DNA of 62,684 nt, counting the filler, from Stramenopiles sp. TOSAG23-2 (Eukaryota), in the NCBI GenBank assembly GCA_900128395.1. It is 24 parts of 24 records of this genome, joined end to end, with 100 filler letters (N's around TTAATTAATTAA, not from the genome) between each part and the next. Parts side by side here need not be neighbours in the genome. Positions count along the whole stretch, not along the records: positions 23,697 to 26,217 come from LT651677.1; 23 more parts are not named here. One strand, written 5' to 3'. This document shows, one piece after another, positions 7,816-54,678 of this stretch; position 1 is the first letter of the stretch, and each line of letters starts with the position of its first letter. The position numbers and the translations under genes are program-made. A model generated the notes under the pieces. It did not search any database. It worked only from the letters and a program-made list of their open reading frames with translations, and had not been told where the DNA came from.

Positions 7816-7915
7816 NNNNNNNNNNNNNNNNNNNNNNNNNNNNNNNNNNNNNNNNNNNNTTAATTAATTAANNNNNNNNNNNNNNNNNNNNNNNNNNNNN
7901 NNNNNNNNNNNNNNN

Positions 7916-8916
7916 GGTGGCTCTGGGTAAGGACCATCCTCCTCTTCATCCCACCAATCTGGTTGAGGAACGTATTCTTCGTCTTCTACTAACGCTGGTG
8001 ATGATAATGGTTCACTACCTGATGTAGTAGTACTACTAGTAGTAAAAGTAGATTTATCAATGGTCCCTCCTCCTCCTTTTGCCATATCCGATGCGCTAAA
8101 TCGATCTTGCACTAATACAGAAATAAAAACACCAATAAGTAAAACAAACCATATTTCATTGAATAAATTATAGGTTGATTTATATAATTTAATAACATGT
8201 CTTTTGTATTTTTTATTGATGATGGCACTATTATTATTATCATCATCATCATCATCATTATCACCATGATCCATTTCATTAGCATTATTAGCGTTATCGC
8301 TTGTGGTTGTTGAACTATTAGTTTCATAAGAATAATCATTTTTTTCATCATCATCCTCACTTCTTGATTTAACTGTTGGTTTATTAGGTTGTTGCAAATC
8401 AGTTTTCATAGTAGTAATAGCAGTTGTTCTGCCATCAGTTGTTCTGCCTACTGCAACACCAGCACCGATTGATAAAATAATCGCTCCCGCTAATCGAAAA
8501 AATGCAGTTTCACCTCCTAACATTCCATATGTAATAGCAGCAGAGTCAAGTCCAGCTGATTGTGCAGCAGTCAAAAATGAAACAACAGCAGCTGGCGATG
8601 CGCCAGCAGAAGATAATCCAATTGATAAGGGAATTGCACCACAGGAACATAATGGAGTTGCTAATCCAAGTAACGATGCCATCAAACATAAAGATAAAAG
8701 TTCAAAAAAAGTTGGATCTTTAGAATTAAATGTCAAAAATCGTCGAACATTTACAGTAGGCAACTTCACTTGCTGCAAAATTACGGTGATTACTAACCCA
8801 ACCGTGAGCCAAGGAAGACTCTCATTGAATTTCGTTCCGGTTAATATGATTATTTCAGACCACGTGCTTGACATACCATCACTACTGGAGTTGCTATTAC
8901 AACATGATGGCGACAT
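7916..8916 (-). CDS. ArsP/DUF318 (UPF0718)-family permease; 3' truncated
   Basis: Signature GLATPLCSCGAIP...GASPAAVVSFLTAA with several hydrophobic helices and an N-terminal Cys pair. Confidence 0.8.
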
Positions 8917-22629: not shown

Positions 22630-24247
22630 CTCTCCTGAGCCCTGAGCGTCGTGTGTTCCGACTAGAGACATATCAAATATCAAAAAAAAATGGAGTTGAC
22701 ATCACTTTACCTTCTATGTATTCATTATTCCCATTTTGATATATAATGTTTTATATATATATATCCGAACAAGTTCCAAATATGATATTTTTCTGTATGA
22801 TCTGGGGAGGTGTGAAATCTGAAAATGGAAATCCAATATCAAAAATTAAAAATATTTGTGATGAAATCAATGCTATAATATTTCAGTTCCTAAATGAATG
22901 GTGAAATGCTATCATAATTTATTCCCTAATATTATAATACCATTATTCCATTTTAGTATACATTGTTTTATATATATCCGAACATATTTCAAATGATATT
23001 TTTGTTGTAAATTTTGTTGATCATCCACAACAAAATAACAACATAATAACACTATTCACTATTGAAAAGAAGAAGGAAGAATAGATCTAATAAAAAAATG
23101 TAATAACAAAGTTAAGAGACCCCGGAATTATATTTGGCATTTAATTATAATCATAGTGTGATTTCTGCACTGCTTTGAAGCATAAAATTGTTGGTGATGA
23201 AGGAGAAATGAGAGAGCCCCTACTCGGATATATATATATATTTGTATTGTAGTAAAGCAGGGAAGAGATGATCCATTTCCAATTAGGAAATAGAATCATT
23301 CGTTCATTCATTCGTTATATATTCATACATTTTAATAACAATACACTTCAAAAGATTGGTATTATTATTATTATTAGTTGTATTATTTTTTATTTGTTGT
23401 TGTTTTTTTAATTTTATTATATATTATTATTATTTTTTTAGATATATAATTTTAATAATACATTTATTCAATAATATATTTTGGATATAAGATATTTTAC
23501 ACATTTTGTGTGAAAAAAAAAGAAAAACAAAAAGAATTATTATTATTATTATTATATAATAAATATATAAAAATTTAGAAACAGAAATACATACCGNNNN
23601 NNNNNNNNNNNNNNNNNNNNNNNNNNNNNNNNNNNNNNNNTTAATTAATTAANNNNNNNNNNNNNNNNNNNNNNNNNNNNNNNNNNNNNNNNNNNNTACT
23701 ACCAACTACAATATCCCTATATAAGATAATAACAGTAGATAGTATCTTAGTAATTATGTGTGTTAGTAATTTTTTAATTACCATAGTAGTACCTTAATCT
23801 AGGTCCTAGACTTTTCATAGTAGTACCTGGTAGGACAAAACTCATTCCAAAAAAACCACCAGCAGCACAAACGCACAAACATAAACAACAAAAACCATCC
23901 ATCCAAATCGAATAATACTATTTTATTGTCGACCATATATTATCCGATACATGTAGTGTGGAAAGAAATCATAGAAAAGATAAAAATAAAGAGATATTTC
24001 TTTTCCATACGATATAACAAATATTATTATTATTGCTGTTGATAGAATACATCACCAATATTGGCGCTTGTATAGTTTATTTTGATTTTCTTATCGTTGT
24101 TGGTGATTATTATTATTATTTAATTATTATTAATTTATAGTCTAATAATTTAGAAAATTTATAAAACGAATAACCAAGTTCGTTGTTATTATTATTATAT
24201 ACACAATATATTGATCATTTTTTGTTAAATAAAAACTTTTGTCCATC

Positions 24248-25873
24248 ATGGCATTAATGCGACCAAGACAAACGAAATTTCGTAAATGGAAGAAATATTA
24301 TATTAAATCATTTGAATACAAAGCAAATAAAGTACGTTTCGGTGCATATGGAATGGTAGCATTAGAAGGTGCACATATAACAGCAAAACAAATCGAAGCT
24401 ACTAGACGTATTTTAACAAGACAATTAAAAAGAGTTGGTCGGGTATGGATACGTATATTTCCACATATACCAGTTACTAGTAAACCAGTTGAGGTGCGTA
24501 TGGGTAAAGGAAAAGGTGCGGTTAGCCATTACATTGCACCAGTAAAACCTGGAACGATTATGTTTGAAATTGATGGTGCATCCGATATCATATCAAAAGA
24601 AGCTTTATTAAAGGCTGGTAAGAAATTACCTATTAAAGTTGGTTTTGTTGATCGATCAAAAGTTGGTGATATTACTATGAATCAAAAGTTTGTGAAATCA
24701 TTAAAAGGTACAGGTGCGGCAAGGAAACTGCAACAAAATAATGGAAAATTAGGGAGTCAAAAACGTGGATTTACATCATCATCTGCTGCGGTAGTACAGC
24801 AAGTATTTAATCGTCAACATAAAATGTTACAACGAGATGCAGCTGCAAATGCTCGATTTGATTTTAATGAAGAAGAAGATGATGGACTATTATCGGATCC
24901 ACCATCAGCAGCAGAACAAAGAGATTTTGAATATTTAAGAGATGAAGTAGCAGATAGATTAATATCTCGTCTTGATTATGTAAATCGAGATTTTCCAAAT
25001 GTACTTGATGTTGGCTCAGCTACGGGTAGCATATACCGTGCATTTCAAGCAAACAATATGTGTAATATTAAAAAAATTACACAAAGTGATATGTCGCTTG
25101 AAATGTTAAGAAAAGGTGAAATAGTTCATAATAATAATAGTAACAATAATGATGATATGATAGAAACAGAATTTGTACAATTCGATGAAGAGATAAAATT
25201 GCCATTTGAAGATAATTCATTTGATTTAATTACATCATCGTTAAGTTTGCATTGGGTGAATAATTTACCTGGTGTTATGAAGGAATTTAATCGATGCTTA
25301 AAACCAGATGGTGCATTTATTGGTGCAATGCTTGGTGGAGAAACATTGAAAGAATTACGTAGTTCATTATTATTAGCAGAACAAGAACGTGAAGGTGGCG
25401 TATCAAGTCATGTCTCCCCAATGGCACATGTTGGTGATATTGGTCAATTGATGCAAAGTGCTGGATTTGCCATACCGACTATTGATACCGATGTATTAAA
25501 AATTGAATATCCAAATGCATTTTCTTTAATGGAGCATTTACAAGGTATGGGTGAAAACAATGCCTCCATCTCACGACGCTTAAATGTCAGTCGTGACACA
25601 TTTTTGGCAGCTGCTGCTGCATACCAAGCTCTTTATGGTGATGATGAAGATGTATTAGATGGAGGTGTACCAGCAACATTTCAAATTATATATATGATAG
25701 GTTGGGCACCGGATCCATCGCAACCACAAGCAAAAGCACGTGGTTCCGCTAAATTAAGTTTGAAAGATATTGATGGTGCAAAAGCTGCAAGTGTGAAAGG
25801 GGAGGAGAAAGAACAAAATCCGATGACTACATATACACGTACTACATTGACGAAAGATGATGGTGATGATTAG
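24248..25873 (+). CDS. rpl16-NDUFAF5: In-frame fusion of organelle-type ribosomal protein uL16 (24248-~24655) and complex I assembly factor NDUFAF5 (~24800-25873)
   Basis: uL16: PRQTKFRK, FGAYG, QIEATRR, VWIRIFPHIPVTSKPVEVRMGKGKG, KLPIK. NDUFAF5: DFEYLRDEVADRL, LDVGS, SSLSLHWVNNLPG, ETLKELRSSLLLAEQEREGGVS, LQGMGE, VPATFQIIYMIGW. No stop, gap or N lies between them. Confidence 0.93.
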   Translation: MALMRPRQTKFRKWKKYYIKSFEYKANKVRFGAYGMVALEGAHITAKQIEATRRILTRQLKRVGRVWIRIFPHIPVTSKPVEVRMGKGKGAVSHYIAPVKPGTIMFEIDGASDIISKEALLKAGKKLPIKVGFVDRSKVGDITMNQKFVKSLKGTGAARKLQQNNGKLGSQKRGFTSSSAAVVQQVFNRQHKMLQRDAAANARFDFNEEEDDGLLSDPPSAAEQRDFEYLRDEVADRLISRLDYVNRDFPNVLDVGSATGSIYRAFQANNMCNIKKITQSDMSLEMLRKGEIVHNNNSNNNDDMIETEFVQFDEEIKLPFEDNSFDLITSSLSLHWVNNLPGVMKEFNRCLKPDGAFIGAMLGGETLKELRSSLLLAEQEREGGVSSHVSPMAHVGDIGQLMQSAGFAIPTIDTDVLKIEYPNAFSLMEHLQGMGENNASISRRLNVSRDTFLAAAAAYQALYGDDEDVLDGGVPATFQIIYMIGWAPDPSQPQAKARGSAKLSLKDIDGAKAASVKGEEKEQNPMTTYTRTTLTKDDGDD

Positions 25874-26317
25874 AAGTGAAAGGAGAGAGAGTGTGTGTCG
25901 CAGAGAAGAGAGCCTGGTTGGGAGAGGTGCAAATATTATTGTTGCTCTCTCTCTCTAATATTTACGTACGTAAAAGAATATTTTTACAATAAACATGTAC
26001 TCTGTGAAAATAATCATGGTGCCAAATATATTTCCTATATTTTTTCTTAATCGTATTAAAAACTGTCGCTCTTAGTCCTGCTTGATGTCATATCGTGACC
26101 GAATCTGACGATTTCTGTAATGCTGTGTACCTGTTATTTGGCCCTTAGCAGTGAAATAACACAACGAAATTAGCAGGTACATAGCATTAAAATTGCAAAA
26201 AAACGCTCAAAGTCCTTNNNNNNNNNNNNNNNNNNNNNNNNNNNNNNNNNNNNNNNNNNNNTTAATTAATTAANNNNNNNNNNNNNNNNNNNNNNNNNNN
26301 NNNNNNNNNNNNNNNNN

Positions 26318-39822: not shown

Positions 39823-40713
39823 ATGGCTATGGAACAAATAAAAGCATTTATTGCTGGTGGTGCTGGTGGTGCAGCATGTGTTTCTGTCGGTTTTCCATTC
39901 GATACGTTAAAAGTGCGTATGCAAAGTGCAGAAGTAGGCGTATACACTGGATTTATGGATGTAGCAAAGAAAAGCATTAAACGAGATGGGATTGCTGCCT
40001 TATATAAAGGTTTAGCTGCACCATTGATTGCACAACCACCCATGTTTGCATTTTATTTTTGGGGATTTAATATTGGTAATCAAATATCGTCAGTCGTACC
40101 TGGTTTACACCGTGCAGATGGAACCACTGATTTTTATACACCAGCAGTTCTATTTTCAGGTGCATTCTCTGCAATTCCGGGGACATTGGCAATGGTCCCT
40201 GGGGAAAGGATTAAGATTGCAATGCAAATGCAAGTGGAAGAAGTTGCCGCAGGAGGTGTTGCAAAATATTCCAGTTCCATGGATTGTTTCAAACAAATTG
40301 TAGCTGAGGAGGGTTTAATAGGTGGAATGTATAAAGGTACGATGGCAACGCTTGCACGAGATATGCCAGGAACAATGGGTTGGTACGGTGCATATTATTT
40401 ATTTAAGAATTTTTCGAAGCGAGATGATGGAACGTATAGCACGCTTGGATTATTAAATGCTGGTGGATTTGCAGGTATAGCTATGTGGATCATTGGTGTA
40501 CCACCTGATGTGATTAAAACTAGAATACAAAATTCTAAACCAGGACAATATCCAGGTGGAATGAGTCAAGTTGTTAAAGAATTAATAGCAAAAGAAGGTA
40601 TAAGTGGTATGTACAGAGGTATAGGACCAGCATTAATACGTGCATATCCTGCAAATGCTGCATGTTTTTTCACAGTGGAGATTGTTACGAAGTTATTAAA
40701 TGGTAGTGAATAG
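39823..40713 (+). CDS. Mitochondrial carrier (SLC25), carnitine/acylcarnitine or basic amino acid carrier-like
   Basis: Three P-x-[DE]-x-x-K-x-[RK]-type motifs (PFDTLKVR, PGERIKIA, PPDVIKTR), plus RDMPG and RAYPANAACF. Confidence 0.92.
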   Translation: MAMEQIKAFIAGGAGGAACVSVGFPFDTLKVRMQSAEVGVYTGFMDVAKKSIKRDGIAALYKGLAAPLIAQPPMFAFYFWGFNIGNQISSVVPGLHRADGTTDFYTPAVLFSGAFSAIPGTLAMVPGERIKIAMQMQVEEVAAGGVAKYSSSMDCFKQIVAEEGLIGGMYKGTMATLARDMPGTMGWYGAYYLFKNFSKRDDGTYSTLGLLNAGGFAGIAMWIIGVPPDVIKTRIQNSKPGQYPGGMSQVVKELIAKEGISGMYRGIGPALIRAYPANAACFFTVEIVTKLLNGSE

Positions 40714-45736: not shown

Positions 45737-47099
45737 TCATATCTTTTCAAATCGTTTCCATTCGCAATGTTTCCTTTTCCTAACTTTATTTTGAACTTGT
45801 GCTTCGCTATGATGAGACCGTTCACCAAATGCTTTTGTTAATATTTCCCGTTGCTTCAATGTTAAATCTGGATGCCACGTATCCACTAGTAAAACAATAC
45901 GAGGAACATTATTTGCTAATCGTTCATCAAAGTATACTTCATGTTCAAATCCATCTCCAAATGCAGATATTTTTCCATGTTGCCATGCAGCTTTGCCATC
46001 CCCATATTCTGAATGATGAAATCCTCGTGGAGTTATTTGTTTCGCAGCACTTGCTTTCTTCGTTCCAGGACTTGATCTACTGATATTACCAACTCGAAAT
46101 GTTGCCCCTGGTGGCAAATCTAATCCTAAATGCATACGAACACGATGGTTTGTAGGACCACAATGTTCTATTACATGTACACCTGGGACTAGCATGGATA
46201 TATAAACATCCCCCATTGGCATTAAAATATCTTGTTTCAATGTCTCTAATATTCTCATCGTCTTTGGTAAATCATTCTTACGATTATTAAACATATGACC
46301 TTGAGATATTAAATACATCACATGCCAAGAATTGAACTCGCTCGTATCCACTTTAGAACGTGGAAATTTCTTAGTGTGTTGAACTTCTAATTCTTTCGTC
46401 GCCCATTCTGCCAATTTTGTACGTGTCCATCCAATTTTACCAGCATTTGCTACTGCTTTTACTTCATCACGAATNNNNNNNNNNNNNNNNNNNNNNNNNN
46501 NNNNNNNNNNNNNNNNNNNNNNNNNNNNNNNNNNNNNNNNNNNNNNNNNNTTCATCACGAATATCTTTCCAATTTGATTCTAATATATCAATCATATTTT
46601 TCAAATGACCTTTTGCTAAATCTGCGGATGAATCACTCCACCAATCTATTGAGCGTAGACCTGGAATTAATATTCTAGGCGGTCTTTCTTTTGGGTGTTG
46701 AAATGTATGATCTTTTAAAGCTAAAAAGCAACATATATCAGCAGGAAGTTGTTCATTTTGCCATTTATTTATTCCATGTCGTTTCTTCCATTTGTTTTCA
46801 CATTGTTCAACTGCTTCTTGTTCTATTTCATCAATTGATTTTTCAAAATTACATTTACAACGTTTTTCACTATGTGCATATGCGCTATCTAATCTATTTG
46901 GCTCTCTATATCGATCATGTTCACAGTCACATGCATCTAATGCAATGCCAACTTTACAATCAGAACTTACAACCAAGACACGTGGTGGCGGGACTAACAT
47001 GATATAATGCATAAACGATGGAAGTGCAAATTTACCAACATCTTGATTTATTGATTTATCACAATGATTATGGTTTAGATGGTATTTATTTTGACATGA
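45737..47099 (-). CDS. Aspartyl/asparaginyl beta-hydroxylase domain protein; 5' partial, spans an internal N gap (46475-46550)
   Basis: PGLRSIDWW...LESNWKDIRDE, SMLVPG-x-x-x-x-x-HCGPTNHRVRMHLGL, WQHGK...FEHEV and RIVLLVDTWHPDL. TTCATCACGAAT overlaps on both sides of the gap. Confidence 0.9.
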
Positions 47100-51455: not shown

Positions 51456-52256
51456 TTACAACTTACTAATCATCATGTCATCATCATCTTTATTATATTT
51501 ACTACCATACCCATTACTACTCATTTTACCACCTAAATAAAAAAACATTGATAAATCAATTGATGATTTGTCTACTTTACCACCTAAATAATGAAAATAT
51601 GTTAAATCTACTGGTATGCCTTTTAACCCTAATAAATATTCTTTTTCTTCCTCCGTTGATAATCGACCTAATATTTCATTACGTGTCGGTTTTCGACCAA
51701 ATTTTTCAATTACAGCTCTACTTTTCAATTGCGATTCAAGGGTACTTAATAAAATCTTATCACTTGGTCTTCTTCGTAAAAACGACTTCATTATTTGAAT
51801 GCCTTTGTCGTGATCCCGTATATCTTCGCTATGCTCGAATGGCAATAATATAAAATTTGCCTCTGCGGAGGTAAATGTTTCAATACCATAATGTTGGACA
51901 ATTCTTTTTGCTGCTGTTAAAGCTATTGGACCAAATGCAAATGAAGCTTCATGGCCACGATATATATGTCTTGGAAATTGATCTGTTAAAATGATAAATG
52001 CCAACGTTCCCATTTTTGTCCTTAACCATCTGGATAAATAACCTTCCACAACGGCTTCTAATGTATCGCCAAAAATTTCTTCAATCTCATCATCATATAA
52101 TTTACCATTTTTAAACCATTTATCTTCCGCATTATCTCTCCCTCGATTATCTTTAAACCAATAATGTAAAACTTCTTCTGGTGTTTTGATATCCCATTCC
52201 TCTTCCTCCTCTTCCTCTTCCTGTTGTTGCGTATTATTTGTCGCTGCACTTGCCAT
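51456..52256 (-). CDS. DUF924 family protein with PTS1 (SKL)
   Basis: VLHYWF...KWF...DDEI, IILTDQFPRHIYRG, LPFEHSED and IEKFGRKPTRNEILGRLSTEEE. Ends in -SKL. Confidence 0.92.
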   Translation of the reverse strand: MASAATNNTQQQEEEEEEEEWDIKTPEEVLHYWFKDNRGRDNAEDKWFKNGKLYDDEIEEIFGDTLEAVVEGYLSRWLRTKMGTLAFIILTDQFPRHIYRGHEASFAFGPIALTAAKRIVQHYGIETFTSAEANFILLPFEHSEDIRDHDKGIQIMKSFLRRRPSDKILLSTLESQLKSRAVIEKFGRKPTRNEILGRLSTEEEKEYLLGLKGIPVDLTYFHYLGGKVDKSSIDLSMFFYLGGKMSSNGYGSKYNKDDDDMMISKL

Positions 52257-53442: not shown

Positions 53443-54678
53443 ATGGCATCGATTTGCAATATAACAGACGAAGATGCATTACATTTTGATTTCTGCTGTT
53501 GCAAACTAATCACACAATCACAAGAAGATTTAATAACGCAAGATTTAAATAAACATCAAAATATACGTCGTATGAAACATTTTATATCGCATTTAGCAGC
53601 TGCAAAGGGGAGTTTAACTGCTAAAAATGCAGGTAAAAAATATGCCTTTGGTATAAAACGAGCATCAACCGCTGGTATTGCAGCTGATGATGGTGGAATT
53701 TTAATCAATACTGTATTAGGTCAAGTATCGTCAAAAACATTAGGATTGACACATTCCCATGAACATATCTATGTGTCAAGTGCTGGATTGTCGCAAATTT
53801 ACCCTGAACGGGTACCAAAGGATTATGTCATAAAAGAAGCAGTTGATGCATTTATTGAATTTAAAAATAGTGGTGGTGGAACTGTTATTGATTGTACAAC
53901 TCATGATCTAGGGCGTGATATAAATTTGATGAAAGAAGTTTCAGAAAAAACAGGTATCAATATTATTGCATCTACAGGTTGTTGGATGGATCCGCCACGT
54001 TCCTTTCAAGCATTAAATCCAGAGGAATTAGCAGCATTATATATTCGTGAATGTACAGTAGGTATTGAAGGAACAAATATTAAAGCTGGGATTATTAAAT
54101 GTGCCCACGAAACTGGTGTTACATGGAAAAAAGGAGAAGGATTTACACGTGTTGGTGAATTAACTGCTAGGGCATGTGCACTTGCTGCAAAAGAAACAGG
54201 GTTACCAATCACAACACATACGGAATGCAAAGAAAGAGTTGGCCTAGCACAAATTGAAATATTCAAAGAAGTAGGAGTGGATTTGAATCGAGTGTATATT
54301 GGCCATTGTAATGATGCGTGGGATATGTCTTATTTAACCGATATGCTTGAACAAGGTGTTTGGATTGGACTTGATCGAACAGGACCAGATTCTCGACGAC
54401 ATGATGGTAGGCCAAGACTTGAAGATCGTATAAATACAATTAAATATTTAATTGATCATAATTGGGCACATCGTATTATGTTATCGCATGATTGGATGGT
54501 ATATATGGGATTTTTAAATCACGATATGGCAGTCAGACGACGAAAACAAAATCCTGATAGTTATTGTTTTATTTTGCGTCAAGTTGTACCAAAATTAATG
54601 GAAATGGGTGTGACTAAAGAGATAATACATCAAATATTAGTTGAAAATCCAAGGAATTTTTTTGAAAATGCAAAGTAG
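53443..54678 (+). CDS. Phosphotriesterase-family amidohydrolase
   Basis: INTVLG, THSHEH, LGRD, ASTG, GIIKCA, ITTHT, IGHC, IMLSHD and ENPRNFF: the full binuclear metal ligand set. Confidence 0.92.
   Translation: MASICNITDEDALHFDFCCCKLITQSQEDLITQDLNKHQNIRRMKHFISHLAAAKGSLTAKNAGKKYAFGIKRASTAGIAADDGGILINTVLGQVSSKTLGLTHSHEHIYVSSAGLSQIYPERVPKDYVIKEAVDAFIEFKNSGGGTVIDCTTHDLGRDINLMKEVSEKTGINIIASTGCWMDPPRSFQALNPEELAALYIRECTVGIEGTNIKAGIIKCAHETGVTWKKGEGFTRVGELTARACALAAKETGLPITTHTECKERVGLAQIEIFKEVGVDLNRVYIGHCNDAWDMSYLTDMLEQGVWIGLDRTGPDSRRHDGRPRLEDRINTIKYLIDHNWAHRIMLSHDWMVYMGFLNHDMAVRRRKQNPDSYCFILRQVVPKLMEMGVTKEIIHQILVENPRNFFENAK

Follow-up and report, generated by a model that had tools for sequence, protein, structure and literature searches.

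A uL16-NDUFAF5 fusion gene of Stramenopiles sp. TOSAG23-2 as a candidate composite mitochondrial precursor of probable organelle-to-nucleus origin

Composite mitochondrial precursors that the mitochondrial processing peptidase (MPP) cuts apart are well established, and the account in PMC8734313 includes Arg5,6, Atp25, Etp1, Rsm22-Cox11 and rice RPS14 among them. MPP cuts such precursors at internal presequence-like sites (PMC8734313), and one partner is often a mitoribosomal protein, a pairing that has been suggested to prevent interference with cytosolic ribosomes (PMC5063612). The gene described here lies in a window of 62,684 nucleotides (the whole stretch of DNA analysed, made of 24 joined records of the Stramenopiles sp. 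TOSAG23-2 genome, assembly GCA_900128395.1) and encodes in one reading frame the ribosomal protein uL16 followed by NDUFAF5, which in human cells carries out NDUFS7 arginine hydroxylation and is required for complex I assembly (PMC4938201). The uL16-NDUFAF5 fusion is real, it is present in RNA libraries and expressed, and it is conserved. The reading we favour, with moderate confidence, is that it arose by organelle-to-nucleus gene transfer and specifies a mitochondrial composite precursor like Arg5,6 and Atp25. An earlier note, made by a model from the DNA sequence, was aware of no account of the pair, and in the full-text literature we likewise found no published description of a uL16-NDUFAF5 (MRPL16 plus NDUFAF5) fusion, the co-mentions, as judged by their listing, being in gene lists.

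The open reading frame (ORF) on the plus strand has 541 codons, opens with the ATG at 24248 and closes with the TAG at 25871-25873, and it carries, as the earlier note had read it, a complete uL16 of bacterial or organellar type and a full NDUFAF5; a basic linker of about 40 residues lies between them. The Ribosomal_L16 family (PF00252) matches residues 6-134 over positions 1-132 of the 132 in the profile (E 9e-42, 142.6 bits against a cut-off of 27.9), and the bacterial equivalog rplP_bact of NCBIfam (TIGR01164) reaches 150.6 bits, its cut-off being 76.85. The conserved rRNA-binding loop V-R-M-G-K-G-K-G, which contains R84, is kept in the uL16 part, and in an alignment of 20 sequences including the uL16 domain of the fusion 48 columns are invariant, R84 to G90 among them. 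The Pfam family Methyltransf_11 falls on residues 253-358, the S-adenosylmethionine (SAM) methyltransferase families together span 231-409, and the core of the SAM-methyltransferase fold occupies about residues 225-500, with predicted local distance difference test (pLDDT) values mostly above 80. The closest named matches of the C-terminal two thirds are NDUFAF5 or unnamed orthologues (E 1e-88 to 1e-73). The frame is closed on its 5' side by an in-frame TAA at 24230-24232, which rules out an N-terminal extension of the ORF, and this stop lies inside an RNA contig (X17 record 9, 24220-24443) that is collinear with the DNA. The claim that uL16 has no presequence is thereby upheld, the protein beginning two residues ahead of the native uL16 N-terminus. 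GC content at third codon positions hardly differs between the uL16 part (0.167) and the NDUFAF5 part (0.168), so that base composition is uninformative on the origin of the two halves, and six of the nine population variants inside the ORF are synonymous, too few for a selection test.

The possibility of a chimera had been raised together with the fusion, and the DNA and RNA across the junction speak against it. Record 13 of X4, an independent metagenome contig, spans 24136-25710 unbroken with one mismatch, and at least 0.80 of the sampled words of 24100-26000 occur in each of 14 DNA runs of marine or seawater metagenomes, which come from 10 or more studies. Seventeen contigs on record encode exactly this protein, its cluster has 20 members, and near-identical full-length members of 540-541 residues come from dozens of contigs in assemblies of several sources. 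Between 0.41 and 0.60 of the sampled words of the same range were also found in six RNA runs. Three of these, each from a study of its own (X15, X16 and X17; two had been enriched by poly(A) or oligo-dT selection), were mapped over 23700-26200, and all the mapped pieces were at least 99% alike to the DNA. The junction between uL16 and linker is bridged by RNA contigs in two of the three, which belong to two metatranscriptome studies: the X17 contig at 24543-24749 runs from the uL16 domain into the linker, and the X15 contig at 24623-25048 covers the last 13 uL16 codons and the whole linker and enters NDUFAF5. The X16 contig at 24433-24667 ends 6 bases beyond the junction and was not counted as bridging. 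No splice joints and no indels within the ORF were seen in the mapped RNA contigs of the three runs. RNA cover extends from 24220 to about 25956-25967 in all three, none of them has RNA beyond about 25967, and the DNA run X4 goes on past both ends; this end of RNA cover where DNA cover continues is a weak hint that the contigs reflect a transcript of about 1.75 kb rather than contaminating DNA.

The search of related sequences that the earlier note had proposed yielded the same two-domain architecture in three more clusters at 90% identity, P0003 (536 residues, on a 20.6-kb contig), P0004 (531 residues) and P0005 (537 residues), all 83-85% identical to the fusion protein. Among the four fused proteins the identity is 93-98% in the uL16 domain, 80-91% in the NDUFAF5 core and 59-69% in the linker, where the closest pair reaches 90%. 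The ribosomal part is thus under the strongest constraint, and its conservation counts against a decaying passenger.

The nearest stand-alone uL16 proteins form a group of 137 residues from marine assemblies (P0167, P0169, P0170 and P0172), which are 69-71% identical to the uL16 part and against which that part is full length. The N-terminal motif T-K-F/Y-R-K-W-R/K-K-Y is common to the uL16 part and to this group and is absent from the bacterial sequences, and the uL16 homology of the fusion ends at residue 138, at most one residue from the end of the stand-alone proteins, whose C-termini read N-K-P, S-E-P or N-R-P. A maximum-likelihood tree of uL16 was built from 63 rows, namely the 4 fused sequences, 6 of the 137-residue group and its neighbours, and every second of 105 other full-length matches. 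The fused clade (100/100) is sister to P0167 and P0169 (99/78) and lies inside a clade of 8 rows with four 137-residue stand-alone proteins (100/100), and the wider clade of 13 rows is split from 50 bacterial-like rows at 100/100. On the question of mitochondrial against bacterial descent, for which the earlier note had suggested such a tree, uL16 is thus nested in a probable mitochondrion-encoded clade apart from the bacterial-like rows. Members of the 137-residue group occur on up to 254 contigs, the longest being 30.7, 35.0, 38.4 and 43.3 kb and one 70.9 kb. In P0313, a 220-residue ORF of the P0169 cluster on a 35-kb contig, a barely recognisable uS3 C-terminal domain (S3_C, 35.0 bits against a cut-off of 34.1) runs without a stop into uL16, an arrangement that looks like the mitochondrial rps3-rpl16 pair. 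A degenerate pattern of the N-terminal motif of the group gave 10 matches in 185,579 prokaryote genomes, none of them L16-like. Judged from the contig sizes, the divergent adjacent rps3 and the absence from prokaryote genomes, the 137-residue group looks mitochondrion-encoded. These three observations together with the nesting in the tree make a mitochondrial-genome origin the best reading for the uL16 half, and the fusion is very probably the result of a recent organelle-to-nucleus transfer. As a separate observation, the two genes of P0313 may overlap or be fused in that probable mitochondrial DNA (mtDNA).

In the NDUFAF5 tree the fused clade (100) stands among NDUFAF5 sequences as sister to the unfused P0006 and P0007 (94 in the SH-like approximate likelihood ratio test, SH-aLRT), which are 60-63% identical to the NDUFAF5 part and have the C-terminal tail Y-T-x-T-T-L-T in common with it. 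The best named NDUFAF5 matches are stramenopiles, and the host is probably a heterotrophic stramenopile, an uncultured marine protist. The nesting of the fused clade among stand-alone uL16 proteins and its sister position to unfused NDUFAF5 indicate that the fusion is derived, and within reach of our searches it appears confined to one clade. Among the best 150 matches of an exhaustive HMMER search of 1.84 billion representatives no other protein matched both domains, a result that excludes distant fusions only, as the fused family is hidden inside a 50%-identity cluster; the one match that spans the junction, P0465, is a fragment of the P0004 lineage. A scan of viral contigs found no relative, and a scan of metagenome contigs with the uL16 alignment returned at least 80 loci of bacterial rplP at up to 57% identity, with no fused or 137-residue-group locus among the matches listed. 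Some database entries of another kind were encountered (P0135, P0174, P0176, P0177 and P0182), which include a merged gene model of 1238 residues that contains the fusion as well as tandemly duplicated or mosaic L16 sequences; all are probably assembly or annotation artefacts.

Past the uL16 homology the protein continues with V-G-D-I-T, Met144, a stretch of 32 residues ending in K-R-G-F, the peptide T-S-S-S-A-A-V-V-Q-Q and finally the conserved V-F-N-R with which the NDUFAF5 core opens. The earlier note had described this linker as basic and acid-free with an in-frame Met, and it had quoted the peptide correctly. Residues 142-196 are indeed the longest acid-free stretch of the fusion protein (55 residues, 11 of them K or R) and codon 144, at 24677, is an in-frame Met. 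The absence of acidic residues turned out to be specific to this sequence, the linkers of P0003 and of P0004 and P0005 having three Glu and one Asp, respectively, and Met144 is kept among the orthologues in P0003 only. In the AlphaFold2 model residues 150-180 have a pLDDT under 50, and the domains on either side are folded with confidence. The last residues of the linker are conserved, and pattern matching agrees with the earlier description of R-G-F-T-S-S as an MPP-type ending: R-x-[FY]-T stands 13 residues upstream of the V-F-N-R anchor in all five fused sequences examined, and of the 100 unfused homologues with a recognisable anchor, whose N-terminal extension has a median of 30 residues, 48 carry R-x-[FYL]-[STA] no more than 25 residues upstream of that anchor. 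By the general MPP R-2/Icp55 rule, R173-G-F-T fits a cut of the R-2 type followed by removal of the aromatic residue. A site of this type with Icp55 trimming is that of Arg5,6 (PMC8734313). In the alignment the motif also coincides with the ends of the presequences of NDUFAF5 from oomycetes and ochrophytes (brown algae), and to that extent the proposal that an old NDUFAF5 presequence became internal has support; the nearest unfused relatives, P0006 and P0007, are without a presequence in their database models, so that this part of the proposal draws on more distant homologues.

These features suggest the following course of events. The gene rpl16, encoding mitochondrial uL16 (uL16m), would have moved from mtDNA to the nucleus and landed in frame directly 5' of the resident NDUFAF5. 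One mRNA, translated from the first AUG, would give a single composite precursor of 541 residues, whose import would be driven by the native basic N-terminus of uL16, by the internal presequence-like linker, or by both. MPP would then cut after R173-G174 and Icp55 may trim F175, so that mature NDUFAF5 would be released together with a uL16m extended at its C-terminus by about 36 residues. A stands at -3 and G at +4 of the first ATG, and nine ATGs lie ahead of the Met144 codon, which makes separate translation of NDUFAF5 by scanning unlikely. The first 20 residues of the protein carry a net charge of +8 and the first 22 are free of acidic residues, and this N-terminus hardly differs from that of the stand-alone 137-residue relatives; mitochondrion-encoded Rpl16 of several protist groups has already been predicted to carry targeting signals (PMC10809612). 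Yeast uL16m has about 49 residues past its homologous C-terminus (PDB chain 5mrc_K, query 24-138 against 27-146 of 195). A complex prediction of the uL16 domain with the NDUFAF5 domain scored 0.00, a value obtained without controls that weighs neither way on binding. We infer import, cleavage and replacement of the mitochondrial copy, and the protein is plausibly a composite precursor.

Several points weigh against this scenario. Internal cleavage of yeast Arg5,6 by MPP needed a strong N-terminal presequence (PMC8734313), and a cleavable N-terminal presequence, one of the marks of composite precursors, is absent from the fusion protein. In a crude scan the linker gave a helical hydrophobic moment of 0.19-0.30, a modest value. 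The closest unfused NDUFAF5 proteins have in their database models only 7 residues ahead of the V-F-N-R core, and either P0006 and P0007 lost the presequence, or their lineage imports NDUFAF5 without one, or the gene models lack first exons. The NDUFAF5 tree does not place the fused clade within a named group. The mitochondrial location of the 137-residue uL16 group is deduced from proteins rather than from DNA, and the uL16 tree also fits the same organisms keeping a mitochondrial rpl16 (P0167/P0169). Contigs, finally, cannot reveal transcript starts, and there may be an extra shorter transcript from inside the gene.

The fusion protein might instead stay uncut, with NDUFAF5 tethered to uL16m and riding the large mitoribosomal subunit, or with a uL16 domain that no longer enters the ribosome. 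We regard this as unlikely, even though the architecture is conserved in four clusters, the cleavage is a prediction from pattern, and the C-terminus of uL16m tolerates extensions, as the yeast structure illustrates. Although conservation is lowest in the linker, its four final residues are invariant and correspond to a motif of presequence cleavage; a processing site explains this combination better than a structural tether does. Next to the tRNA-binding region, an attached fold of about 365 residues would be a large load on uL16, and the described mitochondrial tandem proteins that are discussed in PMC8734313 are all cut. A slightly smaller chance is given to two transcripts, a long mRNA for uL16 with NDUFAF5 as a passenger and a short, internally started mRNA for NDUFAF5 with its own presequence. 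In all the fused orthologues the linker contains an in-frame Met (Met144 in P0001 and P0003, five residues before R-G-Y in P0004 and P0005), the product from Met144 would resemble an ordinary NDUFAF5 precursor, and transcript starts are beyond what contigs can show; however, that Met is not at a conserved position, the junction is crossed by RNA contigs of two studies, no break of RNA cover at the junction is common to the three runs, and the frame across the linker is kept in all four clusters, which would be needless if the long form were a mere by-product.

Horizontal transfer of the uL16 part from a bacterium or a plastid would explain why its scores resemble those of bacterial L16 (best PDB match 2.7e-40; named database matches from alpha- and gammaproteobacteria at 54-58%), and the 137-residue group is known here from proteins and not from DNA. 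This origin is nevertheless very improbable, since the fused sequences are nested in that group and well separated from the bacterial-like rows, the motif of the group is in no L16 of the prokaryote genomes scanned, the uS3 upstream in P0313 is very divergent, unlike the well-conserved bacterial and plastid rps3, and no cyanobacteria are among the named bacterial neighbours. An assembly or gene-calling artefact could be imagined for an uncultured organism, several of whose database relatives are chimeric or merged (P0135, P0174, P0176, P0177). It was rejected and is given next to no probability, the junction being found in an independent DNA contig and in RNA contigs, the region in 14 DNA runs, and the architecture in four clusters. 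A composite precursor that is imported and cut remains our preferred reading of the fusion.

The identity of the two partners also invites a bolder thought. NDUFAF5 was established as an arginine hydroxylase in PMC4938201, where Arg-81 of E. coli L16 appears among just three further known cases of arginine hydroxylation in proteins; that residue sits on a flexible loop that locks into 23S rRNA (PMC4295552). R84 of the fusion is the same invariant loop arginine, with a compatible alignment offset to the PDB match, in a region (residues 75-91) of low confidence in the structure model. As a Rosetta-stone link this would mean that NDUFAF5 might also hydroxylate uL16m, in this lineage or perhaps in mitochondria widely, or might stay tethered to the mitoribosome and link translation to complex I assembly. 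We consider this a long shot, and the pairing could equally be coincidence. An arginine hydroxylase paired with a protein whose bacterial orthologue is arginine-hydroxylated nonetheless makes a hypothesis that is cheap to test.

Features of the uL16-NDUFAF5 gene, with positions counted along the window
Feature	Coordinates	Strand	Evidence
Minimum 5' untranslated region with in-frame TAA at 24230-24232	24220..24247	+	RNA contig X17 record 9
Complete coding sequence, uL16-NDUFAF5 fusion	24248..25873	+	541 codons plus stop; exact protein on record
uL16 domain, residues 1-138	24248..24661	+	PF00252, TIGR01164, alignments
Five-codon bridge V-G-D-I-T, from the end of uL16 homology to Met144	24662..24676	+	alignment to 137-residue group
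Presequence-like basic linker, Met144 to Phe175	24677..24772	+	acid-free stretch, low pLDDT
Predicted MPP/Icp55-type processing motif R173-G174-F175-T176	24764..24775	+	pattern, alignment
NDUFAF5 part, residues 176-541	24773..25870	+	Pfam, named homologues, pLDDT
Minimum 3' untranslated region	25874..25956	+	RNA contigs of X15 and X16 reach 25956

The rest of the window is AT-rich (25-37% GC in 2-kb windows) and gene-dense, with 28 ORFs of at least 200 codons in 62.7 kb. Its content is eukaryotic and nuclear and includes a cyclin, a nucleotide-sugar transporter, a mitochondrial carrier and an enoyl-CoA hydratase, among others. Short runs of N recur regularly, about every 2.6 kb and mostly as pairs of 44, and interrupt several ORFs; they look like masking, and none lies in the fusion ORF. 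The C-terminal tail of the nucleotide-sugar transporter (PF04142, 26761-28035, minus strand) contains two identical tandem copies of a unit of some 33 residues that is rich in K, D and E. At 45737-46555 on the minus strand, an ORF assigned to the aspartyl/asparaginyl beta-hydroxylase family (PF05118, E 2e-30) encodes another protein hydroxylase, with no evident link to the fusion. Families known chiefly from bacteria (DUF6817, the ArsP_1 permease, DUF924 and phosphotriesterase) are represented by the ORFs at 616-1929, 7864-8916, 51456-52256 and 53443-54678, which may have been acquired horizontally by the protist. The mitochondrial carrier, of the carnitine/acylcarnitine type (39823-40713, plus strand), has about 18 environmental clusters at 67-80% identity and then a gap to about 50%, its first named match being the labyrinthulomycete Hondaea at 48%; these many close environmental clusters place the host in a species-rich uncultured marine clade.

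What gives the fusion its interest is a mitochondrial ribosomal gene that apparently reached the nucleus recently and is preserved in natural populations, with close relatives that apparently still have a stand-alone uL16 gene and an unfused NDUFAF5. The case tests the idea that mitoribosomal proteins are pre-adapted for import (PMC10809612) as well as the idea that composite precursors protect cytosolic translation (PMC5063612). Since the transferred gene stands upstream of the host gene, it would have gained a promoter and not an N-terminal presequence. The protein is also a natural substrate for asking whether MPP cuts internally without a leading presequence.

In rice, rps14 is a transferred mitochondrial ribosomal gene that exploits a resident gene. 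There the transferred gene lies downstream and borrowed the host presequence, whereas in the fusion it lies upstream and the host presequence would have become internal. Rice SDHB-RPS14 and S. pombe Rsm22-Cox11, as listed in PMC8734313, resemble the fusion in placing a mitoribosomal protein and a respiratory-chain subunit or biogenesis protein in one gene. Within the own relatives of the fusion, the stand-alone 137-residue uL16 proteins have the same K-W-R/K-K-Y motif and length but are unfused and probably encoded on mtDNA downstream of rps3, and the unfused NDUFAF5 proteins (P0006, P0007 and human) have the orthologous methyltransferase fold without a uL16 domain, the nearest models having almost no N-terminal extension. 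Fungal Arg5,6 (PMC8734313) is a tandem precursor that MPP cuts at an internal site of the R-2 type with Icp55 trimming, as is proposed for the fusion, and its junction motif is conserved across species, as in the fusion; unlike the fusion, its partners act in one pathway and its strong N-terminal presequence is required for the internal cut, and it is an ancient fusion in contrast to the recent transfer proposed here. Yeast Atp25, as presented in PMC5063612, joins in one nuclear ORF a mitoribosome-binding protein (with the Rsf-M domain) and an unrelated mitochondrial protein, and between its halves lies a presequence-like stretch with MPP motifs, as may be the case in the fusion. Atp25 differs in having other partners, a cleavable N-terminal presequence of its own and a cleavage demonstrated by experiment, the one in the fusion being predicted. 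On our reading, the uL16-NDUFAF5 fusion would join the composite precursors cut by MPP with two differences, the lack of a leading presequence and a transferred gene that stands upstream of its host gene.

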